Shown here: piece by piece, positions 20,595 to 48,382 of the stretch
Numbering within the stretch: position 1 is the stretch's first letter
Layout of the letters: each line of letters opens with the position of its first letter
Assembly (NCBI GenBank): GCA_945865545.1
Contig: CAMBEQ010000007.1
Location: forward strand, 196-64,195
DNA from: Sediminibacterium ginsengisoli
GTDB taxonomy: Bacteria > Bacteroidota > Bacteroidia > Chitinophagales > Chitinophagaceae
Direction: 5' to 3'
Length of the DNA: 64,000 bases
Translations under genes and position numbers: made by a program
The notes under the pieces: generated by a model
The model's input: the letters and a program-made list of their open reading frames with translations, nothing else
Database searches by the model: none
Told to the model about the DNA's origin: nothing

Positions 20595-20602
20595 AATTTT
20601 AT

Positions 20603-25552: not shown

Positions 25553-25555
25553 ATA

Positions 25556-26389: not shown

Positions 26390-26414
26390 TATTTATTTTT
26401 TGATTTAATTTAAA

Positions 26415-28251: not shown

Positions 28252-28257
28252 AAATAA

Positions 28258-28920: not shown

Positions 28921-29007
28921 AATTTTAAATTTGTATTTTAATAATTATTTAAACAATTTATTGATAAATTTAAAAAAATAATTATTACGTTAGTTTAAAT
29001 AAAATAT

Positions 29008-30024: not shown

Positions 30025-30034
30025 AATGGATTAA

Positions 30035-30781
30035 TTAAAAAGTACTAGATCTACCTCCATCAATATTTAAAACTGCGCCTGTAATCCATCTACTTTTAGA
30101 GGAAAGCAAAAAAACCGACAAATTAGCAACGTCTTCTGGGATCCCATATCCAAGAGGGTATTTTTTTTTATCAATTAAAATCGCCTCTAAAGATACTTTA
30201 GATTCAATTTCTACAGTCAATTTAGTTTCAACTTGACCAGGAGCAATAGAATTAACCCTTATTCGTTGAGATGCTAATTCTGATGCTAAAACTTTAGTTG
30301 TTGAATTCAAAGCTGCTTTTGTAGATGAATAAATTGAATTTCCTTTCATTCCCATTTCACTTGCAATAGAACTAATAAAAATTATTGACGCGTCTTTATT
30401 TATTTTTTTAATTTTCAATAACTTTGAAATTATTACCAAAATTGAATCGTAATTAACTTTTCGGATTTTATTTAGAACTTCGATATTAAAGAATTTTATA
30501 GGAAGTAATTGAACAATTCCAGCACAGTGAACAATGCCATCAAGTTGATGATCTATTTTCGAAATTAATTTATCTAACCCATCTATGTTTATTAAATCAT
30601 AATTTATTCCAACAAAACTCGGTAATTGATTTGATAAAGCATTTAACTTTTCAGTATTTCTACCTACCCCAATTACTATACCTCCATATTTTGAAATTTG
30701 AAGACATGTTTCAAGCCCTATACCTGAAGTAGCGCCAGTAACCAAAAATACTTTTCCGTTTAAATTTATAAAATTTTCCAC
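30035..30781 (-). CDS. Classical SDR oxidoreductase (FabG-like 3-oxoacyl-ACP reductase)
   Basis: VTGATSGIG, HCAG, SSIAS, YSSTK, RVNSIAPG, WITG..LNIDGG. Confidence 0.88.
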   Translation of the reverse strand: MENFINLNGKVFLVTGATSGIGLETCLQISKYGGIVIGVGRNTEKLNALSNQLPSFVGINYDLINIDGLDKLISKIDHQLDGIVHCAGIVQLLPIKFFNIEVLNKIRKVNYDSILVIISKLLKIKKINKDASIIFISSIASEMGMKGNSIYSSTKAALNSTTKVLASELASQRIRVNSIAPGQVETKLTVEIESKVSLEAILIDKKKYPLGYGIPEDVANLSVFLLSSKSRWITGAVLNIDGGRSSTF

Positions 30782-31867: not shown

Positions 31868-32936
31868 GGTAATAACTCATATTCGTTTTTAAAGATTTGT
31901 TTAAATTCAATAAAACACTACCCCAAGAAAGTCCTACGCCAAATCCACAGAGCAACACAGACAAATTATTTTTTTGAATTAAATTATTAAATGACTGAAC
32001 AATTGTTAAGGGTATAGATGCACCATTTGTATTTCCGAAGTTTTGAATAGAATTAGGCATTTTGTCTTTGTCAACTTTTAATTTTTTTCTTATTGTCTCA
32101 TTCATAAATAAATTAGCTTGATGGAGAAAAAAATAATCGATATCATCTGTCCTTTTTGACACATATTTAAGAATATTGAAAATTGAATTCGGAGCTTTCT
32201 TTATGGCAAAATTAAACACATCTATGCCTTCTAATTGCAAATCAACACTACTTCTTTTGCCTTGTGATGGGTCATTTATATTAATATCTTTTAAATCAAA
32301 TGAATTTTTATTAGTTCTAAACCTTGATCCTCCAGCCTTAATTTTTATTGCATCACTACCTGTGCCATCACTACCTATATCGAATGTCCAATTACAATTG
32401 GATTGAATATCAAATTCAATTGCTGTTGCTGTCCCAGCATCGCCAAATAATGGATAAACGCTTTTATCATACTTAGAAGTATATGTGCTAATTGTATCCC
32501 CCACCAACAATAATGCTCTATTGAACTTAATGTTTTGAAGTAAGTTTGAAACCAAACTTAACCCATAAATGTATCCCGAGCAGCCTAACGATACATCTAG
32601 ACAAAAACAATCTTGACTTAGACCAAGTCTACTTTGCAATAAATTAGATGTTGCTGGTAAAATATAATCTGATGACTGAGACACAAAAATTAAAATATCA
32701 ATATCATCTTTATGCCAAGCAAGTTCAGTAAGAATTTTTTCAGCAGCCTGTAAACACAAGTCAGACGCACAAGAATCACCTTCTGAGATATGTCGCTGAG
32801 TTATGCCTGTATTTTGTATAAATTTTTCTGCATCTTCATTCGAAAAAAAATCTAAATCAACGGTGCGAATTTTTTTTTCAGGAACACATGCTGAAATACC
32901 CCTTATCTGAACATTTTGAACTTCTAGCAAAGCCAT
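31860..32936 (-). CDS. 3-oxoacyl-ACP synthase III (FabH-like), copy 2
   Basis: LGCSG / LHQAN / GNTNGASIP triad; FGDAGTA; GFGVGLSWG. Confidence 0.92.
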   Translation of the reverse strand: MALLEVQNVQIRGISACVPEKKIRTVDLDFFSNEDAEKFIQNTGITQRHISEGDSCASDLCLQAAEKILTELAWHKDDIDILIFVSQSSDYILPATSNLLQSRLGLSQDCFCLDVSLGCSGYIYGLSLVSNLLQNIKFNRALLLVGDTISTYTSKYDKSVYPLFGDAGTATAIEFDIQSNCNWTFDIGSDGTGSDAIKIKAGGSRFRTNKNSFDLKDININDPSQGKRSSVDLQLEGIDVFNFAIKKAPNSIFNILKYVSKRTDDIDYFFLHQANLFMNETIRKKLKVDKDKMPNSIQNFGNTNGASIPLTIVQSFNNLIQKNNLSVLLCGFGVGLSWGSVLLNLNKSLKTNMSYYHG

Positions 32937-32941
32937 ATTGA

Positions 32942-33169
32942 TTACTTATTACTTAATAATTGAAATAAATCTTCAATTGTAGTACAATTCTTGAAATCCT
33001 CACCAGAAAGAGTTTTTGAATAGTTTTCATCTATAAAAGCAATAATTATTAAAGCCATCATCGAACTCCACTCATCTAATTCCCTAAAATTTGTTTCAAG
33101 GTTTATTAAGCTCAAGTCGGTGTCATCAAATTGCTCCTGAAATCCTTTTAAAAATTCTTCTCTTGTCAT
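32942..33169 (-). CDS. Acyl carrier protein
   Basis: 75 aa, acidic, ELDEWSSMMAL (phosphopantetheine Ser region), CTTIEDLF. Confidence 0.88.
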   Translation of the reverse strand: MTREEFLKGFQEQFDDTDLSLINLETNFRELDEWSSMMALIIIAFIDENYSKTLSGEDFKNCTTIEDLFQLLSNK

Positions 33170-33693
33170 GATATTTTATTTAAAATTTTCCTTATTTTTT
33201 TTGTTTTATTTTTATAATTATCTCTTGATATTGTAAAGTAGACATAATCAGCTGTACTTTTTTCTTCATTCACAATACCCCCTTGTGCGATAGTTGATGA
33301 TATTGCTTTTTTGTTGTCTCGTTTTACATGAGAGAAAATAAAATTTAAGTTCAAATCATCAAATACAAAATCATTGAAGCACAATATCATTCTAGCAACA
33401 ATACTAGATTCTTCGAATTTCTCGCTTGCTAGATAAATTGCTCCTTCCCCTGAGTTTTCTATAATATTTCTAATATTAATAACTCCTACTTTTTCATTTT
33501 TGTACTCTCCGATGAAATAATAATTAAGTTCATTATTAATTTCATCAAACCATTTCTCTTGCATCTCTTTTGTTATGTATTCATTCGAAACCATTCTTTT
33601 ATTAACAAAATCGGAATTCCTCCAGTTTCTTAGCAATTCCAAATCGCTATAACAAACTCTTCTTAGAGAAATATTAAATTTATTTTTTTGCAA
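33166..33693 (-). CDS. pseH: PseH-type GNAT N-acyltransferase
   Basis: DLELLRNWRNS..V...M.....IT.EMQEKWF N-terminus; directly follows pseI; TTG start. Confidence 0.82.
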   Translation of the reverse strand: MQKNKFNISLRRVCYSDLELLRNWRNSDFVNKRMVSNEYITKEMQEKWFDEINNELNYYFIGEYKNEKVGVINIRNIIENSGEGAIYLASEKFEESSIVARMILCFNDFVFDDLNLNFIFSHVKRDNKKAISSTIAQGGIVNEEKSTADYVYFTISRDNYKNKTKKIRKILNKIS

Positions 33694-33711
33694 ATTTAAT
33701 TTTTTTTCAAT

Positions 33712-34752
33712 TTAATGTAAATCATCCAAACTTAACCTATCTCCTTTTTCTAAATCTCGTTTAACGATTTTTCCCAAAACCTCGTAATAATATTTAGGAT
33801 GGAGGCCATATCCAGGCCTAATTGATCTAATATTATTCTTACTAATAATTGCACCAGATTTAATATCTTCAACAACATATAAGGAACGACAATAATCTTT
33901 GCCACGCTGTTGTTTCTCTGACAATTGATAATCAATTTTTCCAATTGCTCTCTCCGCATCTCTAATTGACTTTACCATTTGAGTAAATTCAGTTTCATCC
34001 ATTGAAAAAGATGCGTCTGGTCCACCAATTGAATGATCTAAAATAAAATGTTTTTCTATGATTTTCGCCCCAAAACAAGTTGCCACAATAGGCACCGTAC
34101 TACCTATTGTATGATCAGATAGACCTGCAATAACGCCAAATTTATAAGAAAAATCTTTTACCATAACCATATTAGCTTCCTCAATTGGAGCAGGGTAACT
34201 TGATGTACATTTTAATAATGCAACTTCGTAATTACCTTGTTTATGACATGCATTGATTGCTAATTCGATATCTTCCAAAGTTGCTATTCCGGTTGAAATA
34301 ATTACAGGTTTCCCTTTAGATGCAACTAATTCAATTAACGGGATATCTGTTATTTCAAAAGAAGCAATTTTGTATGCTGGTGCATCCAAACTTTCTAATA
34401 ATTCTACAGCAGATGGATCGAAAGGCGAGGAAAAACAAATTAACCCCTCTTGCTTTGCTACCTTAAATAATTCTACATGCCATTCCCAAGGAGTAAAAGC
34501 TTCCTGATAAAGTTCAAAAAGATTTCTTCCATCCCAAATACTCCCACTATTAATTAAAAAATCATTTTTTTTTGAATCAAGGGTAATTGTGTCAGCTTTG
34601 TAAGTCTGCAGTTTTATACAATCTGCACCTGCTCTTTTTGCAGCTTTAATAGTTTCAATCGCGATCTCGATACTCCCATTGTGATTTGCGGACAACTCTG
34701 CAATTATAAAAACTTTGGAAGTTTGATTAATAGTAAAATTATCGATTTTCAT
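33712..34752 (-). CDS. pseI: Pseudaminic acid synthase
   Basis: FIIAELSANHNG, KLQTY, FTPWEWH, KIASFE, KCTSSYPA, GLSDHT, IEKHF, C-terminal SAF domain. Confidence 0.96.
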   Translation of the reverse strand: MKIDNFTINQTSKVFIIAELSANHNGSIEIAIETIKAAKRAGADCIKLQTYKADTITLDSKKNDFLINSGSIWDGRNLFELYQEAFTPWEWHVELFKVAKQEGLICFSSPFDPSAVELLESLDAPAYKIASFEITDIPLIELVASKGKPVIISTGIATLEDIELAINACHKQGNYEVALLKCTSSYPAPIEEANMVMVKDFSYKFGVIAGLSDHTIGSTVPIVATCFGAKIIEKHFILDHSIGGPDASFSMDETEFTQMVKSIRDAERAIGKIDYQLSEKQQRGKDYCRSLYVVEDIKSGAIISKNNIRSIRPGYGLHPKYYYEVLGKIVKRDLEKGDRLSLDDLH

Positions 34753-34811
34753 TATTTAAATTAAATTGTTCATAAACATAATTTGGTTAACAATTAAATT
34801 TTAAAAATATA

Positions 34812-35798
34812 TCAATTATCTATTGCTAGATTATAAAATATATTTAAATAATTTTGATCATTTAAGTTTATTTTATTTTTTTGATTTTGTATAATATTTT
34901 TTTTATTCTTCAACAAAAAGAATGCGTCAGTTAATCTAATTTGATAATCTTCGGAATTAAAATGATTTATATTTACAATCAACCCCAACTTCTCAAATTC
35001 GGATAATGAAAACCTCTGATTTTCTACAAACCATCCAGATATTATTGGTATACCAACTGTAAAGGCTTCCAATAATATAGTACTAGCTGGCAAAATTGCA
35101 AAATCAGACTTTCTAATAAGTTCAATTATATTACTAGGATTTAAGTTACTGAATGTATTAATCTGAGCTTTTTCATTACTAATTTCATTAACTAAACTTT
35201 CATTAACCAAAATATTGAAAATATCAATTTTATTTTTAATTAATACTTTGATTGTTTCATTTATTAATCTAATTTGATTACTGCCTCCAAAGCAAATAAA
35301 TACACTTTTAAAGTTATCTGAAATAATTGTATTTCGCTTTAATTTTGAAATTTTTCTAAATTCTTTTTTAACCATTAAATAGTCTAACCCTAAGTAAAAT
35401 CTAGTTTTAGTATTAGAATTGTAATCTTCTTTTTTATATACAACTCCATGGTTTATAATTGCATCGCAATTATAAACCATGGAGTTTAAATCGTCAATTA
35501 CAACTAATTTTACATTTTTTTTATTGATTTCACTTTGTACATATTCATTAAATTCATAAGAATCTACTACAACAATATTTCCAGGTTTTAAAAGATCAAA
35601 GAAATCATTCTCATCATCTACAAATATAATTGAATAATGATTGGTTTTTATTAAGTCGACATTTGTAGTAATATTTTTATTAAAGACGAAATTAACTTTA
35701 TACTTATTTTCAGTTATTTCAGCAATAGAAAGACATCTAGAGTAATGTCCAAAACCAATTATATTATTAAAATCAGTTCTAAAAAATATTTTATTCAC
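34812..35798 (-). CDS. pseG: UDP-2,4-diacylamido-2,4,6-trideoxy-beta-L-altropyranose hydrolase
   Basis: FRTD...IGFGHYSRCL, VVDSY, VIDD, LGLDYLMVKKEF, CFGGS, ENQ. Confidence 0.85.
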   Translation of the reverse strand: MNKIFFRTDFNNIIGFGHYSRCLSIAEITENKYKVNFVFNKNITTNVDLIKTNHYSIIFVDDENDFFDLLKPGNIVVVDSYEFNEYVQSEINKKNVKLVVIDDLNSMVYNCDAIINHGVVYKKEDYNSNTKTRFYLGLDYLMVKKEFRKISKLKRNTIISDNFKSVFICFGGSNQIRLINETIKVLIKNKIDIFNILVNESLVNEISNEKAQINTFSNLNPSNIIELIRKSDFAILPASTILLEAFTVGIPIISGWFVENQRFSLSEFEKLGLIVNINHFNSEDYQIRLTDAFFLLKNKKNIIQNQKNKINLNDQNYLNIFYNLAIDN

Positions 35799-35800
35799 AA

Positions 35801-36016
35801 TTATTCTAGTACATTTTTTTTAAACTCTTGAGCATTTGAAATTTTTTTTATTTTTGTCCACTGCTTCCCAATTTCTAAATTATTTGATCCTTTATAAACG
35901 TCTAATGTTTCTGTATCTATAAGAACCCATTTTCTGGGAGCCTTCGTATAAACTGAAAGTGTAATTGCATTATCTAATTCTGGGATTTCTTCATCAATAC
36001 ATTTTCTCATTTTCAT
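35801..36016 (-). CDS. Small hypothetical protein embedded in the pse operon
   Basis: 71 aa; ATGA overlap with the pseF stop; ends 2 nt before the pseG start. Confidence 0.6.
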   Translation of the reverse strand: MKMRKCIDEEIPELDNAITLSVYTKAPRKWVLIDTETLDVYKGSNNLEIGKQWTKIKKISNAQEFKKNVLE

Positions 36017-36702
36017 ACTAAATGATTATTGATTTTATATTTTATTTCTGCCAAATTCCAATCTTCTTCATTATCAATATCTTGAACATGAAATCCATCT
36101 AAAATAACTGGTTTAATACTACTAAAATTTCTTTTAGTTAAACTTTCACTTGAATACCAATACCATTGTCCACAGTCATGATATGCAACTTGCAAATCTT
36201 GACTTCTTGTTTTTTCAAACTCAGGCCACCTCATTTTAACATTTCCATGTTCATCTAAAATAAGGCTTCTTAAAATTGGATATGAAAAAGTAGTAATTGG
36301 ATAAACAACATCAATTTCTCTATTTTTTGATAATATTTCATAACCATTGGCAATATCTTTAACTTGAATCAATGGCGCGGTTGGATATATACAACAAATA
36401 TTTATAAACGATTTATTTCTTAATGCATATTCTTTAACTACCTCATCTATAACATCTAAAGTTGTTGCAAAATCATTTGAATTTTCTTGACTTCTATAAA
36501 AAGGTACTTTTGCACCATATTTTATAGCAACTTCAGCAATTTCAATATCATCCGTTGAAACCATAACTTGATCAAATAACTCAGATTTTAAAGCAGCTTC
36601 TATTGAATATGCAATTATTGGTTTGCCAAAAAAATCTTTTATATTTTTTCTTGGAATTCTTTTACTACCCCCTCTAGCTGGTATTATAGCTAAATTATCC
36701 AT
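36013..36702 (-). CDS. pseF: Pseudaminic acid cytidylyltransferase
   Basis: AIIPARGGSKRIPRKNIK, VSTDD, CCIYPTAP, RSQDL, DCGQWYW, QDIDNEEDW. Confidence 0.95.
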   Translation of the reverse strand: MDNLAIIPARGGSKRIPRKNIKDFFGKPIIAYSIEAALKSELFDQVMVSTDDIEIAEVAIKYGAKVPFYRSQENSNDFATTLDVIDEVVKEYALRNKSFINICCIYPTAPLIQVKDIANGYEILSKNREIDVVYPITTFSYPILRSLILDEHGNVKMRWPEFEKTRSQDLQVAYHDCGQWYWYSSESLTKRNFSSIKPVILDGFHVQDIDNEEDWNLAEIKYKINNHLV

Positions 36703-37900
36703 TGTAAAATTCTTTGATTTTATTAATTACAAAATCTTGGTCAGATTCGGTAAGTGTTGGATACATTGGTAAGCTAATACAACGTGTATAATATTCTTCG
36801 GCATTTGTCATATCTCCAGCTTTCCACCCAAATTGTCTATAATAGGGCATTAAATGGGTAGGTATATAATGTATTTGAGCAAATATTTTATTTTCTTTTA
36901 GAAAATTATAAAGCTCTAATCGTTTATCTACCTCAATTATATATAAATGATAAGCATGCCCTTTTAAAAAGCCAGATTGCCCTTTAATAAATTTACAAAC
37001 GCTAAATGCTTCATTATATTTTTCAGCAATTTGACTTCTCTTTTCAATTCCTGAGTCTGCTCTTTTCAGTTGAGAAATACCTAATGCAGATTGAAAATCT
37101 GTAAGTCTATAATTGTAGCCAAGTTCTTGCATTTCCATATACCATCCTGGAAAATTTTGATTTTCCATACTTGAATTAGAAATACCACTTGCCCAATTAA
37201 TATCATTAATAAATTCATTGCTTGATCTTATTATACCATGTGAGCGTAATTTTATAAGCCTTTTATAAAGTAATTCGTTATTTGTTGTAATCATACCCCC
37301 TTCACCAGTTGCAATATGTTTTACAGGATGAAATGAAAAAATAGCCAAATCAGCAAATTTACTATTTCCACAATATTGTTTTATATTATTACTATCTAGA
37401 AAAAACCCACCTGGAGCATGACACGCATCTTCAATAATCCAAAGTCCAAATTCGTCTGCTAAATTTCTAAATTCCTCTAAATTAATTGCCCTTCCTGCGA
37501 AATCAACAGGAATAATTCCTTTATAAGTTCCTTTGGGTGCAGATTCAAGTAAATGCCTAACTTTTTGAATATCTAATAAATATGTTTGAGGATTGATATC
37601 ACTAAAAACAACCTCACCTCCACAATATCTTATGCAATTAGCAGATGCCGCAAATGTAATTGGTGTTGTAATTACCTTTTGCCCTTCTTTTATACTAAGA
37701 GCTAGTGCACATAAATGCAATGCGGCTGTTCCATTTGCAACTGCGACTGCATATTTACATCCAATATAATCTGCAAATTTTGATTCAAATTCTTCAATTT
37801 TTGGACCTTGAGTTAAATAGTCTGACTTTAAAGCTTTAACAACAGCTTCAATATCTTCATCTGTTATATGTTGTTTGCCGTATGGTATATTAAGCTCCAT
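36695..37900 (-). CDS. pseC: UDP-4-amino-4,6-dideoxy-N-acetyl-beta-L-altrosamine transaminase
   Basis: IPYGKQHI, LTQGP, NGTAALH, EDACHA, FSFHPVKHIATGEGG, LGYNYRLTD. Confidence 0.95.
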   Translation of the reverse strand: MELNIPYGKQHITDEDIEAVVKALKSDYLTQGPKIEEFESKFADYIGCKYAVAVANGTAALHLCALALSIKEGQKVITTPITFAASANCIRYCGGEVVFSDINPQTYLLDIQKVRHLLESAPKGTYKGIIPVDFAGRAINLEEFRNLADEFGLWIIEDACHAPGGFFLDSNNIKQYCGNSKFADLAIFSFHPVKHIATGEGGMITTNNELLYKRLIKLRSHGIIRSSNEFINDINWASGISNSSMENQNFPGWYMEMQELGYNYRLTDFQSALGISQLKRADSGIEKRSQIAEKYNEAFSVCKFIKGQSGFLKGHAYHLYIIEVDKRLELYNFLKENKIFAQIHYIPTHLMPYYRQFGWKAGDMTNAEEYYTRCISLPMYPTLTESDQDFVINKIKEFYNG

Positions 37901-37903
37901 GTT

Positions 37904-38932
37904 TTAAATGGAAAACGTTTTATCTACATGTTCTTGAATTAAGAGTCTCAACTCCTCTATCGATACCCATTCTGAATTGGTTCCTGAATTGTAAGTAAAC
38001 CCTTCAATTACTTTTTGTGCTTTAAACTTTTCTACAAAGTCACTTATTGACCATTTTGGAGTTTGTGGAATAATGGCAAAATATTTACCTAAATCATATG
38101 TAAAAAAAGAATCTGAAGAAGTTATCATTTCTTCATGAATTTTCTCACCTGGCCTAATACCAATAATTCTTTGTTCACAATTTGGTCCAATTGCGGATGC
38201 AATATCTGTAATACGGTATGATGGAATCTTAGGAACAAATATTTCTCCACCCCATGCTGAATTTAATGCATGTAAAACCATATCAACTCCCCCTTGTAAT
38301 GAAATATTAAATCTTGTCATTTCTGCAACTGTAATTGGCAATACACCTTCTTCTCTTTTTTTTATAAAAAAAGGAATAACAGAGCCATTGGAACCCATAA
38401 CATTTCCATATCGAACAACAGAAAATACAATTGGATTAGTTCCTTTTATGTTATTTGCTGCTATGAATAATTTATCTGATGCTAATTTAGTCGCTCCATA
38501 TAAATTAATTGGTGCAGCAGCTTTATCTGTTGACAAAGCTACAACCTTAGTTACACCAGTTTCTAATGCTGCGTTTATTACATTTTCTGCTCCATTTATG
38601 TTTGTTTTAATACATTCCATTGGATTATACTCAGCAATAGGCACGTGCTTCATTGCTGCAGCATGAATAATATAATCTACCCCTTTAAATGCCATTCTTA
38701 GCCTTTCATAATCTCTTACATCTCCAATAAAAAAACGTAATTGAGGGTAATCCTTAATTGGATATTCTTGAGCCATCTGAAATTGCTTCTGTTCATCCCT
38801 AGAAAGAATGATAATTTTTTTAATTTTGGGCCATTTAGAAACTATATTTTTGGTCAGAGCCTTACCAAGAGATCCAGTGCCGCCTGTTATCAAAATAGTT
38901 TTATCATCTAAATTTAAACTACTATTTATCAT
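37904..38932 (-). CDS. pseB: UDP-N-acetylglucosamine 4,6-dehydratase (inverting)
   Basis: TGGTGSLG, SRDEQKQ, HAAAMKHVP.AEYNP, STDKAAAPINLYGATK, RYGNV.GS.GSV, GIRPGEKIHE. Confidence 0.96.
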   Translation of the reverse strand: MINSSLNLDDKTILITGGTGSLGKALTKNIVSKWPKIKKIIILSRDEQKQFQMAQEYPIKDYPQLRFFIGDVRDYERLRMAFKGVDYIIHAAAMKHVPIAEYNPMECIKTNINGAENVINAALETGVTKVVALSTDKAAAPINLYGATKLASDKLFIAANNIKGTNPIVFSVVRYGNVMGSNGSVIPFFIKKREEGVLPITVAEMTRFNISLQGGVDMVLHALNSAWGGEIFVPKIPSYRITDIASAIGPNCEQRIIGIRPGEKIHEEMITSSDSFFTYDLGKYFAIIPQTPKWSISDFVEKFKAQKVIEGFTYNSGTNSEWVSIEELRLLIQEHVDKTFSI

Positions 38933-39845
38933 AATATTTTTTTAAAATCTATAATTTTTTTCTTCAAGCCTTCATTCAAAGGAATTTTATTCCTCCATCC
39001 AAGTGAAGTAATTTTTGTAATATATAATAATTTTTCTACACGTTCCATTTGGTATACTTTGATCAAATTCAAAGCTTTCATTATATACAATTATTTCTTT
39101 AATGATTTTTGCAATTTTATAAATTGAAATTTCTAAGCCGTTTCCAATTTTTACTTTAGCACTTTCATTATAATTTTGTTTAAGAAAGAAACAAGCTTCA
39201 GCAAGATCATCAACATGCAAAAATTCTCTTCTGGTCCTACCTGTTCCCCAAATAGATACCCTTGCGTCATTATTTATTTTTACAAAAACAACTCTTCTAA
39301 TAAATGCAGGAAGCCCATTTGAATTATCTGGATGGTAATTATCATTGGTGCGATACAAATTAATAGGCATAGCAGAGATGAAATTACAACCATATTGTGC
39401 CCTATAACTATCACACATTTCAATTCCTGCTATTTTAGCAATTGCATAAGGTTGGTTTGTATATTTTAGATATCCACTTAATAAATATTCTTCTTTTAAA
39501 GGCTGCTCAGCTAATTTAGGATATATGCAAGATGAATAAATATATAATAACTTATTTAAATATTAAGAATGAATAATATTTGCCTCAATAATTAAATTAT
39601 CGTAAATAAATTCTACTCTATAAAGTATTATTTGAGTAAATTCCACCCACCTTTGCTGCAGCAAGTATTACAAATTCAGGTTTTTCTTTTTCAAAAAAAT
39701 TATTTACTGCTTGTTGATTTCTTAAATCTAGTTCAATAGAAGTTCTTGTCATTAATGTTGTTTTACCCCATCTTAATTTACGATCTAAGCTAGAATCTAC
39801 CATTCCTCTATGTCCAGCCATATATATTTTAGCAGTTTGTTTCAT
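38922..39845 (-). pseudogene. fcl: GDP-L-fucose synthase pseudogene
   Basis: Continuous Fcl homology broken by a +1 frameshift near 39622, an in-frame TAA at 39563-39565 and a +1 frameshift in the T5 run at 39031-39035. Conserved motifs also eroded (GSA to DSS, PTNLYG to PINLYR). The original stop overlaps the pseB start. Confidence 0.9.
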
Positions 39846-39847
39846 GG

Positions 39848-40936
39848 TTATAATCCACTTTCTTTGATATACAATTCCTTTTTAAATAAAGAAATATCAC
39901 TCGCTACCATTTCTTTAACCAATGCCGCTAAATCATATTTAGGCTTCCATCCTAATTTAGTCATTGCTTTTTTAGGATCCCCAATTAATAAATCAACTTC
40001 CGTTGGTCTATAATATTTAGGATCCACTTTTACAACAACTCTGCCTTGTTCTAATTTGTATTCACCAGTATTTTTAACAACATAACCTTCTTCTGCTTCA
40101 TTTTTTCCTCTAAATCCTAATTCTATACCCAACTCTGCAAAACTCATTTTCACAAAATCACGAATTGTAGTAGTGATACCAGTTGCTAAAACAAAATCCT
40201 CAGGTTTTTCTTGTTGCAATATCAAATACATTCCTTCTATATAATCTTTTGCGTGTCCCCAGTCTCTTTTAGCATCTAAGTTTCCTAAGTATAAACAATT
40301 GTCCATGCCTAAAACAATTTTTGCTGTTGCTCTCGTGATTTTTCTAGTTACAAAGGTTTCACCTCTTTGTGGAGATTCGTGATTAAACAAAATACCATTA
40401 CAAGCATACATATTATATGCTTCTCTATAGTTTACTGTTATCCAATATGCATATAGCTTGGCAACAGCATAAGGAGACCGTGGATAAAATGGAGTTGTTT
40501 CAGATTGAGGCACAGCTTGTACTAAACCATACAATTCTGAAGTAGATGCTTGGTAAATTTTTGTTTTCTTAATTAAACCTAATAGACGAACTGCTTCTAA
40601 AATTCTTAATGTACCAATACCATCTGCATTTGCTGTATATTCAGGTTCTTCGAAACTCACATGTACATGGCTCATTGCTGCTAGGTTATATATTTCGTCA
40701 GGTTGAACTTCTTGAATGATACGAATTAAATTAGTACTATCAGTTAAATCACCATAATGTAAATGAAGATGCCTGTTTGGTGTATGTGGATCTTCGTATA
40801 TATGATCAATCCTTTGTGTGTTTATTAATGAAGCCCTTCTCTTAATACCATGCACTTCATATCCCTTTTTTAATAAGAACTCGGCAAGATAAGCGCCGTC
40901 TTGCCCAGTAATTCCAGTAATGATTGCCTTTTTCAT
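39848..40936 (-). CDS. gmd: GDP-mannose 4,6-dehydratase
   Basis: [73 protein letters not shown]. Confidence 0.97.
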
Positions 40937-41668
40937 TTATATTAAATTATTTGTGAAAGTTTTGGGCTGTTTAACGTAAAAATAAAAATTTGCATCAAAA
41001 CTATTATAATCAATTTCTATTTTTTCAAAATGGGGTGTAAATAAATCTTTAATCAAATCTGAGTTTTCAAATTCAGTTTTATGATCTATATGTCCATTTG
41101 CCTTAGGAAGCATCCCAATCAGTTGCATTTCTTTTGTTCCACAAGAAATAATTTTATAGATAATGAAATTTATTTCTTCTATAGTAAAATAGCAAATCCC
41201 AGCATTCCAGATAAATGTATCATAATTTTTATCTGGAAATTCTTCTTCTAAAATATTAATTTTTAGAAAATTTATTTTAGGATGTTTATAAAAATAATTA
41301 GCATATTTAATAGCATTATTATCAATATCTATTGCATCTATTTTTGACGATATATCTTGATAAAAGAAAAAAGAATAAGAACCATCACCACAACAAATAT
41401 CCAAAGTTTTAGAATTTTGTATCATTTTCTCTCTGGCTTTAACACCTCGCAAAACCCATACCCATTCAGATGGATCAAATCTCCAGCTATTAAAGTTAAT
41501 TGAATGTTTAAAAAATTTTGGAGGATTGTTTGCATTTATCCCTGACCACTCTTTTATTAAAAGTAGCTGAGAGAAGAAATAATTCATTTTAGCAAAATAA
41601 AATATAATTAAATCTAATAAAAAAGTATTTATAATATTATTTATAATTGCTTTTTTTAAAAATTTCAT
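40937..41668 (-). CDS. Class I SAM-dependent methyltransferase
   Basis: TLDICCGDG, IDAIDID, YDTFIWNAGICYF. Confidence 0.78.
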   Translation of the reverse strand: MKFLKKAIINNIINTFLLDLIIFYFAKMNYFFSQLLLIKEWSGINANNPPKFFKHSINFNSWRFDPSEWVWVLRGVKAREKMIQNSKTLDICCGDGSYSFFFYQDISSKIDAIDIDNNAIKYANYFYKHPKINFLKINILEEEFPDKNYDTFIWNAGICYFTIEEINFIIYKIISCGTKEMQLIGMLPKANGHIDHKTEFENSDLIKDLFTPHFEKIEIDYNSFDANFYFYVKQPKTFTNNLI

Positions 41669-41696: not shown

Positions 41697-42230
41697 CTAA
41701 ATCAATTTCATAAATACCCCAACCTCCTTTAGTATTTTCTCGGTAAATTCATGGGGTTGATATAGGGCTAGGCGTATTTTTTTGTCTATAACAGTTTCTG
41801 CCTTTTCAATCAACTGGTATAAATAAGCTTTATCAATATCACCTACTATCACTAAATCAACAAAGGGGTTGTTTTTTCCTAAAGCTAGGTCGCCGGTTAA
41901 ATATACTTTGTCCACATTGCCTAGTTTGTCCAATACATTTTCAATTATCTGATCTAACCCAACATATTGCATTATCACCCCCCTTAATGATTTAAACATA
42001 GGATGATTGGTGTTTACTGAATAATGTTTGGTTTTTGTATTGATGCTTTCGGTATGTTCATGTATCAAGTGCATTTCTGATAACCTATTTAATTCCAATC
42101 GCACGGTATTACTGCTTACTTCTAATTCTCTCTCTAAGCCACGTAAATACACGGTGCTAGAGGGATTGAGTAGCAATTTGGTGAGCAACTGCACTCTAAT
42201 TTTTCCAGTAAAAATTTTATCTAAGATCAT
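41697..42230 (-). CDS. Winged-helix (ArsR-like) regulator fused to a minimal nucleotidyltransferase-like domain
   Basis: YLRGLERELEVSSNTVRLELNRL HTH; VYLTGDLA...VDLVIVGD NT motif. ATG 42230 preferred over the track's GTG 42296, which runs through the leader element. Confidence 0.78.
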   Translation of the reverse strand: MILDKIFTGKIRVQLLTKLLLNPSSTVYLRGLERELEVSSNTVRLELNRLSEMHLIHEHTESINTKTKHYSVNTNHPMFKSLRGVIMQYVGLDQIIENVLDKLGNVDKVYLTGDLALGKNNPFVDLVIVGDIDKAYLYQLIEKAETVIDKKIRLALYQPHEFTEKILKEVGVFMKLI

Positions 42231-42273
42231 TGGGAGTAGATGAATAATAAGTAAATAGATAAAGAAATATACT

Positions 42274-42313
42274 ATGGCTTCGCCACCCTGTGTCACACAT
42301 TAATCATGAAGAC
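42274..42313 (-). promoter_or_regulatory. ops-like leader element, copy 2 (imperfect hairpin followed by GGCGAAGCC)
   Basis: Minus strand TGTGACACAGGGTGGCGAAGCCAT (42297-42274); 20/24 identical to the copy at 48098-48121; 44 nt upstream of ATG 42230. Confidence 0.6.
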
Positions 42314-42418
42314 TCAATATTGTTCATTAAAAATAGCGCAATTTTGAGTAGTAAAAATAAGAATTATTGAGTATATTATAAAATATTTAGACGAAAGTTT
42401 AATTAGCCTTAGAAATTG

Positions 42419-44359
42419 CTATTTTCTAGCCCTCGTTATATCCAATATCTTGGTTTGAAGACTAGAATCTAGGCGCTCAAATATGCTATTATTACTAATA
42501 AATTCAGGAACCAGTTCCTTCATTTTAGCTACTAATTGCATTTCACTTGCAGCAATTACAATTAATTGGCTTAGTTCTTCAAAGTGTAGTTTATTGTTGA
42601 TAAGTTCCACCTCCCTTACTTTAGCTATCAATATTTTATCGTGATAAGTTGCTAAGGTGTTTTCAGCATCGTTTAAAAGCTCTTCGTATAATTTCTCGCC
42701 AGGGCGTAAACCACTATAAGTAATATTAATATCAATATTCGGGATCATACCATACAAACGAATCATTTTTTTAGCCAAATCGGCAATGGCAACAGGTTGT
42801 CCCATATCAAAAACAAATATTTCACCACCATTGCCCATACTGCCAGCTTCCAATACCAATTGACATGCTTCTGGAATGGTCATAAAATAACGTGTAATAT
42901 TAGGATGCGTTACCGTTAAAGGTCCACCCTTTTCTATTTGATCCTTGAATCTATTAATCACCGATCCATTGGAGCCAAGTACATTTCCAAAACGAGTAGT
43001 GATAAATTTAGTCGTAATATTTTTTTCACTCGATATGCCTTGTACATAAATTTCGGCCATTCTTTTACTTGCCCCCATTACATTGGTAGGGTTTACTGCC
43101 TTATCGGTACTTATCATTACAAATCTTTCGGCATGATATTTCACAGCTAAGTCGGCTAATATTTTAGTACCAATTACATTATTTCTTACCGCTTCGGTTG
43201 GGCAAAGTTCCATCATAGGAACATGCTTATAAGCAGCAGCATGGTATACATAATGTGGCTTAAAAGTTTCAAATAACCCTTCAATTCTTTTTTCATTGGT
43301 GATATCCGCTAAAAAAGAAACGCAGTTGATTCTTGTACCACGCTCATGTAATTCTAATTCAATATTATGAAGAGGGGTTTCGGCCTGGTCACACATGATA
43401 ATCATTTCGGGAGCGTATGGAATTAACTGCCTTACTATTTCACTTCCAATAGATCCTGCAGCCCCTGTTACTAATACACGCTTGCCTTTTATTTGCGAAC
43501 GTATTTGATTATTATTGATCACAATTGGATCACGTTCTAATAAATCTTCAATTTTGATAGATTGTAATTGATTGCTGCTAAACTTACCTTCGGCCCACCT
43601 ATCATAAGCGGGAACGCTTAACACTTTAATATCATGATCCAAGCAAAAATCGACCAACTCATTTTTTCGTTTGGTGGGAATGGTAAAGCTGGCAATAATT
43701 AATTCGTCAATGGGTTGTATAGGAACTAATTTTATAAAATCATCATAACGGACTACTTGTATCCCATTTAAATTTTTATTGGTTTTCTTTTTATCATCGT
43801 CAACAAAAGCAACTATATTAATATTACTGGCTCCATCATTTTCTAATACACGTTGTGTAGCGACACCTGCATCGGCAGCGCCAAAAATAACTACATTTTT
43901 CTTTTTCATTTTGTAGTTTTTGGCATAAGCAAATAAAAACTTTACAAGCACACGATAACTTACGAGTATTAAAAAACTAAAGCCAGCATATACAATTACC
44001 ACTACAGTGCTTAATACAAATTCTTGGCTATAGCGATAAGAAACACTGTTTACAATAAATAAAATAGCAGCCGATCCAATAACAGAGATACTTATTCTAA
44101 AAGCGTCTTGTATGCCGGTGTACCTAACAATACCTGAATAAGTTTTAATAGAAGTAAATACCAAGGTATTAGTAATAAATACCAATACAAAAGTATTTAG
44201 CACCGCTTCCCAGCTTAACCCCATTAAGGTTAAGTTTTGTTTAATAGCAATGGCTAATAAAAGCGAAAACAAAGTGCCCCCAATATCTAATGAAAATATA
44301 ATCCAACGAGGAACAATACTAAAATTTTTAAACATACTACTGGTTTTTATTTGATTCAT
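42419..44359 (-). CDS. Membrane-anchored UDP-GlcNAc 4,6-dehydratase (CapD/WbpM/PglF family)
   Basis: Four N-terminal TM segments, IFGAADAG, EDLLERDP, TGAAGSIGSE, HAAAYKHVP, STDKAVNPTNVMGASKR, GLRPGEKLYEEL. Confidence 0.95.
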   Translation of the reverse strand: MNQIKTSSMFKNFSIVPRWIIFSLDIGGTLFSLLLAIAIKQNLTLMGLSWEAVLNTFVLVFITNTLVFTSIKTYSGIVRYTGIQDAFRISISVIGSAAILFIVNSVSYRYSQEFVLSTVVVIVYAGFSFLILVSYRVLVKFLFAYAKNYKMKKKNVVIFGAADAGVATQRVLENDGASNINIVAFVDDDKKKTNKNLNGIQVVRYDDFIKLVPIQPIDELIIASFTIPTKRKNELVDFCLDHDIKVLSVPAYDRWAEGKFSSNQLQSIKIEDLLERDPIVINNNQIRSQIKGKRVLVTGAAGSIGSEIVRQLIPYAPEMIIMCDQAETPLHNIELELHERGTRINCVSFLADITNEKRIEGLFETFKPHYVYHAAAYKHVPMMELCPTEAVRNNVIGTKILADLAVKYHAERFVMISTDKAVNPTNVMGASKRMAEIYVQGISSEKNITTKFITTRFGNVLGSNGSVINRFKDQIEKGGPLTVTHPNITRYFMTIPEACQLVLEAGSMGNGGEIFVFDMGQPVAIADLAKKMIRLYGMIPNIDINITYSGLRPGEKLYEELLNDAENTLATYHDKILIAKVREVELINNKLHFEELSQLIVIAASEMQLVAKMKELVPEFISNNSIFERLDSSLQTKILDITRARK

Positions 44360-44381
44360 ACAACAGCGGGATTGTATTTAA

Positions 44382-45476
44382 CTAAGCAATTAATTTTTTA
44401 TATAAACTTGAAAATATTAAATAAAAGGCTGTTAAAAAACTCGAAAGTAAACTACCTACTATTATCGAATTTAATTTGCTCACTTCTTTTTTAACTAATG
44501 GAAAAGTTGGAGAATCAATAATTTGTATTAAAGGGGTTTCCTTTCGAAGTGCCATTTTAGACATCTCCAAATTAGCAACTAAGCTATTGAGCATTGCAGT
44601 ATTAGCCTGCACATCAACCTGCCTGCGTGTACTTAGCGTTTTTTTTATATTCATTGCTGAATTTAAATTAAATACATTGTCATTTGCAGATGCTACCCCT
44701 GTAATAGCATTATTTAGTTCAGCTCTAATACTATCTGTTTGACGTTGTAAAATATTTAAATTAGTCCGTGCTTTTTTGCTTTTTATTTCAATATAGTATT
44801 TAGAAGTTTCAGTTGCTAAATTCTCGCAAAATACCTTTGCGAAATTTTCATTTTCATTTATTATTTCAATACTTGTAATAGATACTTTCTTATCCTTTTG
44901 GCCAATACTAAAAAATTTTGGCCTAATTAGACTTGAATATATGCCATTTAAAATAGAATTTTGATTTAGTGAAAATTTTGATCTATCGGCATTAGGTAAA
45001 AATTGGATACTTTTTAATTTAGGTATTTTGCTCCAATTTTCTCTTAATTTATTTATTTGAATATAATATTCAGCTATGCTAATAGTTGAGCCATTAATTA
45101 CTACCGGATTCAACAAAGTTTTCTCTACCAGTAAACGACTTTTCATCAGTTCAATTAAATTTGATCCAGCAAAAACTCCTCCGCCGCCGCTTGAGCCGAA
45201 ATCAATGCCAAAGCTACTAGCTAATCCAAGTGCGCCACTTAGTCCACCGCCTTTATCTTCTTCCAACACAAAAGTTAGCACCGCTTTATAAGTAGGCTTT
45301 TCAAAACAAGCATTAACCAGCCCAATAGTTGCTCCAAAAAAACTAGCTAGAAAAATAATTTTCCAATTGGTTTTTAAATAATCAGCTAACTCATTAATTT
45401 TTTGAATGTGTTCCTTTAACGAAATTTTATCCAAATCGCTGGAATTACTAATTGGATTTATCTCTTGTTCAATCAT
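44382..45476 (-). CDS. Polysaccharide co-polymerase / chain-length determinant (Wzz-like, no kinase domain)
   Basis: Two terminal TM segments, glycine-rich loop, coiled coil, TPLIQIIDSP. Confidence 0.85.
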   Translation of the reverse strand: MIEQEINPISNSSDLDKISLKEHIQKINELADYLKTNWKIIFLASFFGATIGLVNACFEKPTYKAVLTFVLEEDKGGGLSGALGLASSFGIDFGSSGGGGVFAGSNLIELMKSRLLVEKTLLNPVVINGSTISIAEYYIQINKLRENWSKIPKLKSIQFLPNADRSKFSLNQNSILNGIYSSLIRPKFFSIGQKDKKVSITSIEIINENENFAKVFCENLATETSKYYIEIKSKKARTNLNILQRQTDSIRAELNNAITGVASANDNVFNLNSAMNIKKTLSTRRQVDVQANTAMLNSLVANLEMSKMALRKETPLIQIIDSPTFPLVKKEVSKLNSIIVGSLLSSFLTAFYLIFSSLYKKLIA

Positions 45477-45486
45477 GTTGTATAAA

Positions 45487-48021
45487 TTATTTGTTCAACA
45501 ATTTCACCGTAGCTAATGCTGCAATTACTTGTGCAATTACAGTTGTAAAAGATAAAATAGTTGCTAATGGTTTGTCTAATTTCTCATTGGTCTCTGGAAG
45601 AATTACTTCACAACCTGGTTTAATGGCTGGGCTTATTCTAAAAAATCCAAAATGTTTGGTGCGGTTACTTTTACCATTGGCATATACCACATAAGCACGT
45701 CCTCTTTTTGCATATTCGCTAATGCCGCCTGCAGCTGATATACAATCGTTGATATTAATACCCTCTCTATATACAATATTCGTTGATCTTAATACCCCGC
45801 CACTTATTTTTATGCGGTTATCTACTTTAGGGATTACTAATTCATCTTTGTCTTTTAATACCAAATCATCCTCTGATCCCGGATGAGTAATAATATAATT
45901 GATATCAATAGCAATTTGATAATAATCATTATTTAAATCGTTCATGATTGCATTGAGGGTGTCGGATAAACTTTTTTTGTTGGCATTTTGGTCGGCTATG
46001 GGAGCACCTAACTGATTTTGGATATCAGCTTTTTCTGTGGCTTGTTGTGCTTTCAATTTTCTTCTATACACTTCCTCAATACTGGTTTTTGTTTCATCAG
46101 CTTTTAAAGTATCTACAACATGTTTGCTTCTTTTAATAAAAGCTCCTTCTCCATAAGCATCTCCAATTAATCCGCCAGCTCTAGTAACAATATCACTTAC
46201 TCTTTCTACCCTGGTTCTTAAAGTATATTTTCCTGCATTTTGTACCTGACCACTGACAGAAATTATTTCTGGAGTAGTAAAGCCTGCTTTTTTAGTAATG
46301 GTAACCACATCAAAAGGCTGCAACACTATATTTTCATTGCCATTTGTAAAACTTAAATCCCCATTAATTTCTGTTTTAAAAATAGTAGATACGCGGTTAT
46401 TATCTACTTTATTTTCAAATTGAACCATTCTGGCTACTTCAATACTTTTATTGGCTGCATAATTAAAACCGCCCGCCATTAATATTAAATCCTTCACAGT
46501 CATACTGTCTATGTAAACATACCTACCCGCATTTCTAGTTTCTCCTATTAAATCTACCGATAAAGAGTCCCTTAAATCCAATACCGAATTAATGTATAAT
46601 TCATCCTCTCTTTGTAATAAAATATTTTCTGTAGCATCATTTCTTAATGCCTTTCCTAGATTAATGCTTATGAGTTCTTTTAATAAATTGGGTTTTAATC
46701 GAATTAATTGCGCCCTTCCTGTAAACGCATCTTCTTTTAATCCATCGGCTCTTCTAACTAAATCGGCAATCCGCATCCCTGAAGATAATTCATACACATC
46801 GGGTCTGAATACCGCACCCGTTAATTTAACTCTATTTTGAAAACGATCTAATATTTTAGAAATAACAAATACATCCCCTCCACCTGGTTCATATTTTTCA
46901 AAATCAAGTTTGGCTAAATCTTTAACCGATTTTTCTTTATCCAATTTTTGAATCACTTTTACAACAGCTGTATACGCCGTATCATCAAACCCACCTGCAT
47001 AGTTTAAAAATTGACTAAAATTTTCTTTACCTACCAATTCAAAAATACCTGGGCGTTTTATTTGACCTCTTATTTCTACTCTATTTTTATAGGGTGGTAC
47101 ACGAATAACATCATGGTCTTTTAAACCTATATTTTGAGACTGATCGCCATTTTGCATAAAATGATACAAGTCAATGGTCTTAAATACTTTATTATTTCTA
47201 ATTAATTCAATGGCTCTGTAACTTCCAATTTCACTTGGGCCACCTGCTTCTGTTAAAGCACTTAACACATTGGATAAAGAAGAAATATTGTAATTACCGC
47301 TTCGGGCTGCACCAATAACTGTTACTTGTATGGTGCGAATATCACCTAAGGTTAAGGCTATTTTAGATTCTCCTCTGGCAATGCTCGGATAAGCACTGCG
47401 TATCATTTGATTTTTTAAGCGATCCGTTGCTGCTTCAATGGTTAATCCTGCCACTTTTACTTGACCCACATTTTTTACCTGTATGAACCCTTCCTTACTC
47501 ACTGTTAAATCATCACTATATTCTTGCACACCATATACCACTAATTTCAACACATCATTTGGGCCAATTTCATAATTTAAGGGGGTGGCAATATTTTGAT
47601 TTTCACCAAACCCGGTTCCATTGTCATTAAATAATTCAGAACCGTAGATGAGTGGATTGATATTATTTTCTGGCCTTTGTTTTCTTTCGTTACCAGTAGT
47701 ATCTGCATAGGCATTTTGTCCTTTTTTCCCAGTCATTTTTCTTAAGGGCGAGTTAGCATTAGGCCTAGCCCCTTTGGTACTTCCCAATTTTGCTTTTAGT
47801 TTTGCAAATTCTGCAGGGCTCATCCCTTTGGCTATGGCTTGTTGTTCCACTTGATCGATAGTCATGCCTGCTTGTTGCAATTGGGCTTGTATTTGAGCAA
47901 TTTCAGTTTCGGTTAAAGCATCCACTTTTAAAGTACTTAAGTCTTTTGAACTTAATAAGTTTTGTGCTTGCACACCAATGCTAAAACAAACCAATAGTAA
48001 ACCTGTAAAAAACAATTTCAT
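45487..48021 (-). CDS. Polysaccharide export protein with multiple SLBB domains (Wza/KpsD-like)
   Basis: Signal peptide, PLNYEIGPND (Poly_export), repeated V.G.V.RPG SLBB units, C-terminal TM. Confidence 0.92.
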   Translation of the reverse strand: MKLFFTGLLLVCFSIGVQAQNLLSSKDLSTLKVDALTETEIAQIQAQLQQAGMTIDQVEQQAIAKGMSPAEFAKLKAKLGSTKGARPNANSPLRKMTGKKGQNAYADTTGNERKQRPENNINPLIYGSELFNDNGTGFGENQNIATPLNYEIGPNDVLKLVVYGVQEYSDDLTVSKEGFIQVKNVGQVKVAGLTIEAATDRLKNQMIRSAYPSIARGESKIALTLGDIRTIQVTVIGAARSGNYNISSLSNVLSALTEAGGPSEIGSYRAIELIRNNKVFKTIDLYHFMQNGDQSQNIGLKDHDVIRVPPYKNRVEIRGQIKRPGIFELVGKENFSQFLNYAGGFDDTAYTAVVKVIQKLDKEKSVKDLAKLDFEKYEPGGGDVFVISKILDRFQNRVKLTGAVFRPDVYELSSGMRIADLVRRADGLKEDAFTGRAQLIRLKPNLLKELISINLGKALRNDATENILLQREDELYINSVLDLRDSLSVDLIGETRNAGRYVYIDSMTVKDLILMAGGFNYAANKSIEVARMVQFENKVDNNRVSTIFKTEINGDLSFTNGNENIVLQPFDVVTITKKAGFTTPEIISVSGQVQNAGKYTLRTRVERVSDIVTRAGGLIGDAYGEGAFIKRSKHVVDTLKADETKTSIEEVYRRKLKAQQATEKADIQNQLGAPIADQNANKKSLSDTLNAIMNDLNNDYYQIAIDINYIITHPGSEDDLVLKDKDELVIPKVDNRIKISGGVLRSTNIVYREGININDCISAAGGISEYAKRGRAYVVYANGKSNRTKHFGFFRISPAIKPGCEVILPETNEKLDKPLATILSFTTVIAQVIAALATVKLLNK

Positions 48022-48097
48022 TATGATAGAATTTAGTAGAAGATGATCGTTTGTGTTAAAATAGCGTTTAATTTATAACAATAGTTAGTTTTTTTAT

Positions 48098-48142
48098 ATG
48101 GCTTCGCCTTCCTTAGTCACATAATAGAAATGAGATGACTAA
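48098..48142 (-). promoter_or_regulatory. ops-like leader element, copy 1 (7-bp hairpin followed by GGCGAAGCC)
   Basis: TTAGTCA (48113-48119) / TGACTAA (48136-48142) inverted repeat, then GGAA-GGCGAAGCC-AT on the transcribed strand, 77 nt upstream of the export gene ATG. Confidence 0.62.
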
Positions 48143-48382
48143 AGATTTGCAATTAGTTGAGAACTATTTAAAATAGACTTAGCTAATACAGATATTCAAA
48201 AACGAGTTAACTATTTCAAAATTAACACTTTATACAAATTTTAGGGGGGTACAATTTATACTGTAAAAATACCTTAATTATTAGAAATAAACAAAAAAGT
48301 TAATACATTGATAAGTATTTACTTATATATTTTAATATATTAATAATTTATATAAAGACTTTACGATAAAACTTAGATTTTA

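Follow-up and report, generated by a model that had tools for sequence, protein, structure and literature searches.

Ops-like elements ahead of two polysaccharide gene strings in a freshwater Chitinophagales lineage are likely recruitment sites for UpxY-family proteins

Introduction

What is the role of two nearly identical, GC-rich 24-mers that stand ahead of polysaccharide genes in an AT-rich stretch of the Sediminibacterium ginsengisoli assembly GCA_945865545.1? The stretch, hereafter the window, is the whole 64,000-nucleotide segment analysed here (contig CAMBEQ010000007.1, positions 196 to 64,195), and an initial annotation took the two 24-mers for pause or loading sites of a trans-encoded factor resembling UpxY, a NusG paralogue. 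Our comparisons across Bacteroidota support this proposal because the 24-mer precedes UpxY and polysaccharide genes, with a variant of it upstream of 78 of 80 UpxY genes, because a covariance model built from other sequences (R1) finds both window sites and only these, and because the anatomy of the element matches that of the opsX sites of Bacteroides fragilis. We consider it likely that both elements are ops-type recruitment sites of the UpxY family, placed in transcribed leaders and acting in the antitermination of polysaccharide operons.

UpxY/ops control has so far been worked out only in gut Bacteroides, where every capsule operon has its own UpxY and its own divergent site. New here is a broad, conserved version of the element outside Bacteroidales that is used without a locus-encoded UpxY; the mechanism itself is known from gut Bacteroides. 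Capsule leaders of B. fragilis hold single pause sites, termed opsX (Saba et al., Nat Commun 2024, PMC11685472). Class-1 opsX sites combine a NusA-stimulated RNA pause hairpin with a non-template DNA hairpin, 5'-YGCGNAGCR, at -11 to +1, and the NGN domain of the cognate UpxY reads this DNA hairpin together with upstream duplex DNA, about 40 bp in all (PMC11685472).

Two elements on the sense strand of polysaccharide genes

Site 1 contains the conserved 24-mer TGTGACTAAGGAAGGCGAAGCCAT (48098..48121, minus strand, read 48121-48098), in which positions 48120-48110 form the 3' arm of an upstream hairpin, an exact copy of the mini-hairpin GGCGAAGCC (G-GCGAAGC-C) occupies 48100..48108, and the candidate pause T is 48098. 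By R1 match and computed fold, the whole ops-like element, comprising pause hairpin, spacer, mini-hairpin, and conserved T, spans 48096..48146 on the minus strand. Site 2 contains the 24-mer TGTGACACAGGGTGGCGAAGCCAT (42274..42297, minus strand, read 42297-42274), with its mini-hairpin at 42284-42276 and candidate pause T at 42274; the element as matched by R1 covers 42272..42312 on the same strand, a position that is kept in relatives.

As first described, the two 24-mers are identical at 20 of 24 positions and are GC-rich for their surroundings, with 50% G+C in each against about 30% in the adjoining DNA and in the window as a whole. The pattern TGTGACNNNGGNNGGCGAAGCCAT, allowing up to three mismatches, matches exactly twice in 64 kb and not once in 100 shuffles, and exact matches to GGCGAAGCC occur at sites 1 and 2 and nowhere else in the window. 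Both 24-mers are intergenic and lie on the sense (non-template) strand of the genes downstream, site 1 inside a 360-nt gap ahead of a wza-type gene and site 2 inside the gap between a CapD/WbpM-type gene and the gene for a 177-residue winged helix-turn-helix (wHTH) protein.

A family of elements that precedes UpxY and polysaccharide genes

An exact pattern scan with one genome per species returned at least 80 loci, and the following figures hold among the matches listed. About 66 of the 80 are intergenic sites in Chitinophagaceae, Pontibacter, Pedobacter, and Flavobacteriales, representing the orders Chitinophagales, Cytophagales, Sphingobacteriales, and Flavobacteriales, and about 14 are coding matches in G+C-rich non-Bacteroidota, a number that chance predicts. 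The intergenic Bacteroidota sites share the consensus TGTGACTGAGGnnGGCGAAGCCAT, and the family in non-Bacteroidales Bacteroidota can be summarized as TGTGACTnAGG-nn-GGCGAAGCC-nT. The family is strictly co-oriented with downstream genes, and Bacteroidota copies nearly always precede a co-oriented open reading frame (ORF). At 60 pattern sites, the first downstream ORF belongs to Poly_export in 20 cases, to the NusG family in 11, and to tyrosine recombinases in four, with Wzz, GDP-mannose dehydratase, glycosyltransferases, and others among the remainder. Several sites within one co-directional locus are a recurrent arrangement, for example at locus L057. Literature searches with motif strings and for UpxY outside Bacteroidales returned UpxY work for gut Bacteroidales only, in which the consensus goes unmentioned.

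The connection with UpxY holds in both directions. Proteins of the NusG family encoded downstream of the motif in other genomes pass the UpxY family model NF033644 (119.2 and 145.7 bits; curated cut-off 100 bits), and Pfam NusG matches all seven proteins examined as well as the 11 first ORFs counted above. A first profile made from seven UpxY proteins was too diverse for a locus search. Sampling was then reversed: 80 UpxY genes were found by protein and the 300 nt upstream of each were inspected. The pattern NGC[GA]NAGCN lies within that distance of 78 of these genes, compared with an expectation of about 14%, and its usual context is aTGTGAyTGAGrT-GGCGAAGCy-rT. Model R1 (E <= 0.01) matches 54 of the 80 loci. 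Clade-specific variants of the leader (TGTAACyGAGATG-GGCGGAGCC; TGTAACTGATATC-GGCGTAGCC; TGTTACyGGGAAA-AGCGAAGCT) group with clades of the UpxY tree. The two UpxY genes of one Flavisolibacter metagenome-assembled genome (MAG), DASVSM01, differ in their site variant, TGTGACTTAGGAAGGCGAAGCC for one and TGTAACCGAGATGGGCAGAGCC for the other, and three further loci have two tandem sites before a single UpxY gene, which together hints at factor-site specificity classes as in Bacteroides.

The 24-mer is also found ahead of tyrosine recombinase genes at four loci and of a phage-tail-sheath-like gene at another, and one Chitinophagales MAG has three near-identical copies with shared flanks before non-polysaccharide genes. 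These contexts may mean that UpxY-type control extends beyond polysaccharide operons. The recombinase neighbours and the three copies with shared flanks would also suit a scattered repeat of the repetitive extragenic palindromic (REP) type, or a mobile one, unrelated to operon leaders, an outcome that the initial annotation had itself set against its proposal. Copy number and the orthologous positions held across relatives contradict such a repeat: the window has two copies, and the 42 kb of contig flanks add one weak, hairpin-less match (E = 0.03). Bacteroidota copies are, moreover, intergenic with a co-oriented ORF next to them, most often for polysaccharide export or UpxY. We give a REP-like origin practically no credence.

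An upstream hairpin with RNA-type covariation

R1 was built from 33 UpxY leaders without any window sequence and describes a 9-bp hairpin with 3' arm TGTGACTG followed by a 3-bp GGC/GCC stem. In the window and the 42 kb of flanking contig, it yields exactly two matches at E < 0.01, namely site 1 (48144-48096, 24.6 bits, E = 2.8e-5) and site 2 (42312-42272, 16.3 bits, E = 0.009). The weak third match, GAGGTGGCGAAGCTGGGG, lies about 1.4 kb past the low end of the window on the source contig (L083 12113-12139, minus strand). Located at the 3' end of a 211-residue ORF, with a DUF218 gene behind it, this match lacks a hairpin and is probably due to chance.

In UpxY leaders, 91-94% of hairpin cells are paired (91% among 53 distinct leaders), as against 26-38% with slid partners, and two-sided changes occur at five pairs. 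At one pair, U.G and C-G are found in 22 sequences each, and the tolerance of G.U but not of A.C is the mark of RNA folded from the sense strand rather than of a DNA palindrome. At all 68 sites selected by pattern, upstream pairing of the 3' arm is stronger than in dinucleotide shuffles (mean z = -1.14, p = 2e-9), and only 31% of these sites fall below the 5th percentile of their shuffles, so that the hairpin is frequent without being universal and the 24-mer is conserved regardless. A gap-free stem count against mononucleotide shuffles, the first test applied, gave no significant difference (6.34 versus 5.86 bp); it allowed G.U in AT-rich DNA and took the wrong part of the arm, and was replaced by the energy-based test and R1.

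At site 1, the 5' arm UCUUUAGUCAU (48135..48145, minus strand) and positions 48120-48110 form an 11-bp stem, two of its pairs being U.G, around a 14-nt loop (-13.7 kcal/mol, z = -2.97), and a close relative carries a compensatory change, CTTTGTCA/TGACAAAG. Site 2 keeps a residual 5' arm, TTGAGTC (42311..42317, minus strand), which pairs with GACACAG (42294-42288) across a 16-nt loop with one A.A mismatch. Relatives retain a TTGAGT/ACTCAG pairing at this place, which indicates that site 2 of the window carries one disruptive T-to-A substitution.

These structures raise the alternative that the element acts purely as RNA, either with the hairpin and the GGC-GAA-GCC stem-loop bound by a KOW domain in the manner of LoaP or as a cis-regulatory RNA or attenuator, and with no DNA hairpin. 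The RNA-type covariation fits such a role, GGCGAAGCC folds in RNA too, and at site 2 a GUGGC/GCCAU stem with a T-rich run was flagged as terminator-like. The T-rich tail, however, is missing at site 1 and is not conserved, and an Rfam search of both sites found no match at the gathering score or even at E <= 10, JUMPStart included. The sequence of the 3' arm is conserved even in copies that lack the 5' arm, as would fit DNA recognition. Recognition in B. fragilis depends on the NGN domain and on DNA, not on hairpin RNA, and on opsB scaffolds the effect of the factor persists without the RNA hairpin when non-template and upstream DNA are kept (PMC11685472). Because the 3' arm is conserved without its pairing partner and UpxY recognition in B. 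fragilis is DNA-dependent, we regard an action through RNA alone as unlikely. An intrinsic terminator at site 2 was considered separately and rejected, the terminator-like call being the mini-hairpin itself. LoaP leaders of Bacillus polyketide operons resemble the window sites in joining a NusG paralogue to a hairpin-bearing leader before very long operons; they differ in the proposed binding of an RNA hairpin by the KOW domain, in having no GCGNAGC DNA mini-hairpin, in phylum, and in that LoaP is usually encoded beside its target.

Mini-hairpin, conserved T, and likeness to opsX

In computed folds, GGCGAAGCC forms a hairpin as single-stranded DNA. Its outer pair covaries, being G-C in 36 and G-U in 17 leaders and A-T in further variants, and its loop base varies among A, T, and G in the family, like the N of YGCGNAGCR in B. 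fragilis. In 97 sites chosen without regard to these positions, the second base past the mini-hairpin is a T with 89% conservation, and the bases beside it vary freely. The near-invariant parts of the element are the mini-hairpin and this T, and the RNA hairpin is dispensable in many copies.

The anatomy matches that of class-1 opsX. In both, a polysaccharide operon follows an RNA hairpin that stands directly upstream of a GCGNAGC mini-hairpin sequence on the non-template strand, and NF033644 proteins are associated with both. The GCGAAGC core of the window sites is the same as in opsE, which is CTGCGAAGCATA (PMC11685472); the outer pair is complementary and a T follows. The conserved upstream block of the window sites lies where UpxY would contact duplex DNA. 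In contrast to opsX, the TGTGACTnAGG of the family is common to several orders rather than specific to one operon, the window operons are headed by wza and the wHTH gene and not by upxY/upxZ, two sites stand in one co-directional cluster, and there is no evident invertible promoter.

The E. coli ops element of JUMPStart (GGCGGTAGCGTG), the target of RfaH, offers a second comparison. When the window T is taken as -1, GGCG falls at -11 to -8 and T at -1 in both, the window sequence could form a small non-template hairpin with a G.A-closed loop as ops does, and RfaH serves long surface-polysaccharide operons from a gene away from its targets, as the factor of the window would. Unlike the window element, ops is a 12-nt type-2 pause without an RNA hairpin, its loop is GGTA rather than GAA, its factor is RfaH and not UpxY, no Rfam JUMPStart match occurs in the window, and GGCG and T are all that align. 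On the same numbering, the mini-hairpin would occupy -11 to -3 and the RNA hairpin of site 1 would end at -13, a distance usual for a hairpin-stabilised pause.

Could the leader feature work without any dedicated factor, as a pause stabilised by its hairpin or as a 5' stem-loop shielding the mRNA, in a lineage that has no NusG paralogue for it? That no UpxY was found near the locus in the window's lineage would agree with this. Neither role accounts for a mini-hairpin and T that stay near-invariant even though the RNA hairpin is dispensable in many copies, and the tight association with UpxY genes elsewhere would be left unexplained; we judge factor independence highly improbable.

Both elements probably lie in transcribed leaders, a view that draws on candidate promoter elements and their conservation. 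In UpxY leaders, matches to the Bacteroidota -7 box TAnnTTTG are most frequent at -90 to -80 relative to the motif (22 of 76). Upstream of site 1, the candidate box TAATTTTG (48217..48224, minus strand) stands 103 nt from the motif as the sole exact TAnnTTTG in 300 nt, in a block kept in close relatives. The candidate box of site 2, TATTTTTA (42328..42335, minus strand), stands 38 nt upstream, and the aligned place in two relatives (L175, L179) reads exactly TATATTTG, within an invariant TTGCG.TAT.TTT block. Of the initial description of both 24-mers as lying on the transcribed strand in 5' leaders, the sense strand and intergenic position stand as observed, and the leader status follows from these boxes at -103 and -38 as a probable one. 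A sigma-70 promoter scan was set aside, its hits being at chance level and its model not applicable to Bacteroidota. High metatranscriptome depth in the two leader bins was likewise discarded, since it traced back to the conserved wHTH coding sequence and to an unrelated contig that matched by chance over 20 nt.

A proposed route from leader to antitermination

We propose that RNA polymerase would start at an upstream promoter of the Bacteroidota type and transcribe the element, whose nascent RNA would fold into the hairpin with the conserved TGTGACTnAGG block as its 3' arm. The elements probably pause RNA polymerase so that a NusG-like factor can board. This pause would follow the hairpin by about 12 nt and probably fall on the T just past the mini-hairpin, whose conservation is the one indirect sign of a pause here, and in the open bubble the non-template G-GCGAAGC-C would fold into the stable d(GCGAAGC) mini-hairpin. 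A NusG paralogue of the UpxY family could then read the mini-hairpin together with the upstream duplex TGTGACTnAGG and displace NusG, leaving a polymerase that would resist pausing and termination across the wza-wzz-capD module and the string of about 42 kb behind site 2. Site 2 might have a weak promoter of its own or might re-load polymerases arriving from site 1. The sequence family, its gene contexts, the covariation of the RNA hairpin, and the likeness to opsX anatomy are observed; we infer the pause position, the single-stranded DNA hairpin, factor binding, and antitermination.

Outside Bacteroidales, a single well-conserved consensus, composed of the RNA hairpin, TGTGACTnAGG, G-GCGNAGC-C, and a T, thus stands before polysaccharide operons, UpxY genes, and certain other operons of Chitinophagales, Cytophagales, Sphingobacteriales, and Flavobacteriales. 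On our proposal, annotators of environmental Bacteroidota could use it as a simple tag for operons under UpxY control. The site variants, which go with factor clades, would provide a natural series for studying how NusG paralogues read DNA. The locus itself would be a case like the RfaH regulon, with the factor away from its targets, assembled from UpxY-type parts, and the mechanism is directly testable in cultivable relatives such as Sediminibacterium and Pontibacter.

A factor not found at the locus and other points of doubt

Several observations weigh against recruitment of UpxY at these sites, and most concern the factor. A search found no NusG- or UpxY-like ORF in the window (all E > 1), as had been noted at the outset. 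The hunt for upxY beyond the window also came up empty: no NusG paralogue was found among the called genes of the source contig (94.6 kb, from a lake metagenome), read at record positions 5613-88826 (83 kb), or in a six-frame hidden Markov model search of both flanks. UpxY is found within 6 kb of wza in none of 27 relatives, and 58 of 60 metagenomic relatives lack it for 10 kb around the wHTH gene. The two UpxY-bearing loci belong to a sister lineage with the order UpxY-wza-wzz-ops-wHTH. The nearest homologues of this UpxY are Flavobacterium(-type) proteins at 65-70% identity, which made up most of what a search with it returned. Neither a clear orthologue in the lineage of the window nor an abundant close orthologue was among the results, and this UpxY does not identify the factor of the window organism. 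A genome scan with a Sediminibacterium UpxY query matched that gene alone.

Other such points concern the sites themselves. The outer pair is G...C (in some variants of the family A...T) rather than Y...R, so that the literal pattern YGCGNAGCR does not match, and the T of the window is one base further from the mini-hairpin than in opsE. The hairpin of site 2 is no better than shuffles (z = -0.11; percentile 0.67), so that the initial claim of a TGAC arm closing an upstream hairpin at the same distance in both sites stands for site 1 and fails for site 2. The candidate box TATTTTTA is imperfect, with one mismatch from TAnnTTTG, and in the only metatranscriptome that holds related sequences, no contig spans either motif. 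The grouping of leader variants with UpxY clades could also reflect shared descent alone.

Taking these points into account, we still favour recruitment of a UpxY-family protein, with the factor inferred to be encoded at another place in the genome. A distance between factor gene and site is seen in Flavisolibacter, where chromosome OZ252003.1 has its UpxY gene at 765-772 kb, 500 kb from the ops-like site that precedes wza at 264-272 kb.

Conservation in relatives directs attention to the wHTH protein as well. The window belongs to a freshwater group whose MAGs go under the labels Chitinophagales or Sediminibacterium (best Wza match 94% identity, in CANFOM01), and at least 13 relatives retain site 1 at 75-100 nt upstream of wza. 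Among 60 metagenomic loci found via the wHTH protein, the motif precedes the wHTH gene in 41 of the 42 that have upstream DNA, as it also does in a Chitinophaga MAG. The end of the motif lies 31-32 nt from the wHTH start codon, except at three sister-lineage loci (18 nt) and in the window, where a 10-nt insertion gives 43 nt. With 80-90% identity among hundreds of proteins from freshwater metagenomes, the wHTH protein exceeds its neighbour Wza in conservation; it is of a winged-helix plus minimal nucleotidyltransferase-like type. Pfam matches are sub-threshold only, and no relative was found in the Protein Data Bank.

Two further explanations build on this protein. In one, the lineage has no UpxY for these sites and the element is read by the wHTH/nucleotidyltransferase-like protein, acting as the factor itself or as a co-factor that is essential; we think this distinctly unlikely, and if true, it would give an ops-type signal a non-NusG partner. 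In the other, the element is a double-stranded DNA operator, for example for the wHTH protein, and acts on initiation rather than elongation. An operator would explain the nearly fixed distance to the wHTH gene and the conservation of TGTGACTnAGG in sequence beyond what pairing demands. It is hard to reconcile with an element that is neither a palindrome nor a direct repeat, lies downstream of the candidate -7 boxes, keeps a strict orientation with respect to downstream genes, and tolerates G.U but not A.C in its hairpin as RNA of the sense strand does. Most sites, including those of 78 of 80 UpxY leaders, also have no wHTH gene nearby, and we hold an operator to be very unlikely.

Gene strings around the two sites

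All genes behind the two sites are on the minus strand. Site 1 is followed by a long Wza-type polysaccharide export protein of 844 residues (45487..48021; Pfam Poly_export, SLBB), a Wzz-type chain-length determinant (44382..45476; Pfam Wzz), and a CapD/WbpM-type sugar dehydratase (42419..44359; Pfam Polysacc_synt_2). First after site 2 is the 177-residue wHTH/nucleotidyltransferase-like protein (41697..42230; sub-threshold HTH_DeoR and NTP_transf_2 only), and downstream of it, about 40 co-directional polysaccharide biosynthesis genes occupy 128..41668, according to the ORF list and Pfam on the source contig. The initial placement of the elements ahead of both long operons holds for site 2, which precedes a co-directional string of about 42 kb; site 1 precedes only the 5.6-kb wza-wzz-capD module.

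Within the long string, a GDP-mannose 4,6-dehydratase gene (39848-40936) is followed by a GDP-fucose synthase-type epimerase (38929-39845, minus strand) that is split into several broken frames, among them an N-terminal piece of 75 residues at 39618-39845 and a C-terminal piece of 143 residues at 38987-39418. The break reflects either a pseudogene or sequencing errors. In the distal third of the string, G+C falls from about 30% to 22-25% (window 14000-48000 compared with 1-14000), which suggests a mosaic locus built from cassettes of differing origin.

A second polysaccharide locus, on the plus strand, extends from window position 52337 to 64000 and into L085, with Wzy, glycosyltransferases, a priming transferase, and, past the end of the window, a Wzi-like protein, a second long Wza, and Wzz. 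R1 found no ops-like site at this locus.

Two homopolymer runs were seen near the candidate promoters. The relatives L167 (about 11610-11630), L175, and L179 (these two in aligned columns 1-20) have some 11-15 consecutive G where the capD-like gene ends, directly upstream of the site 2 promoter region. The window lacks this tract, which in the relatives might permit phase variation by strand slippage or might be an artefact of assembly. Close relatives share a second run with the window, six C long (in one of them seven), located in the window at 48250-48262 on the minus strand, immediately before the candidate site 1 promoter.

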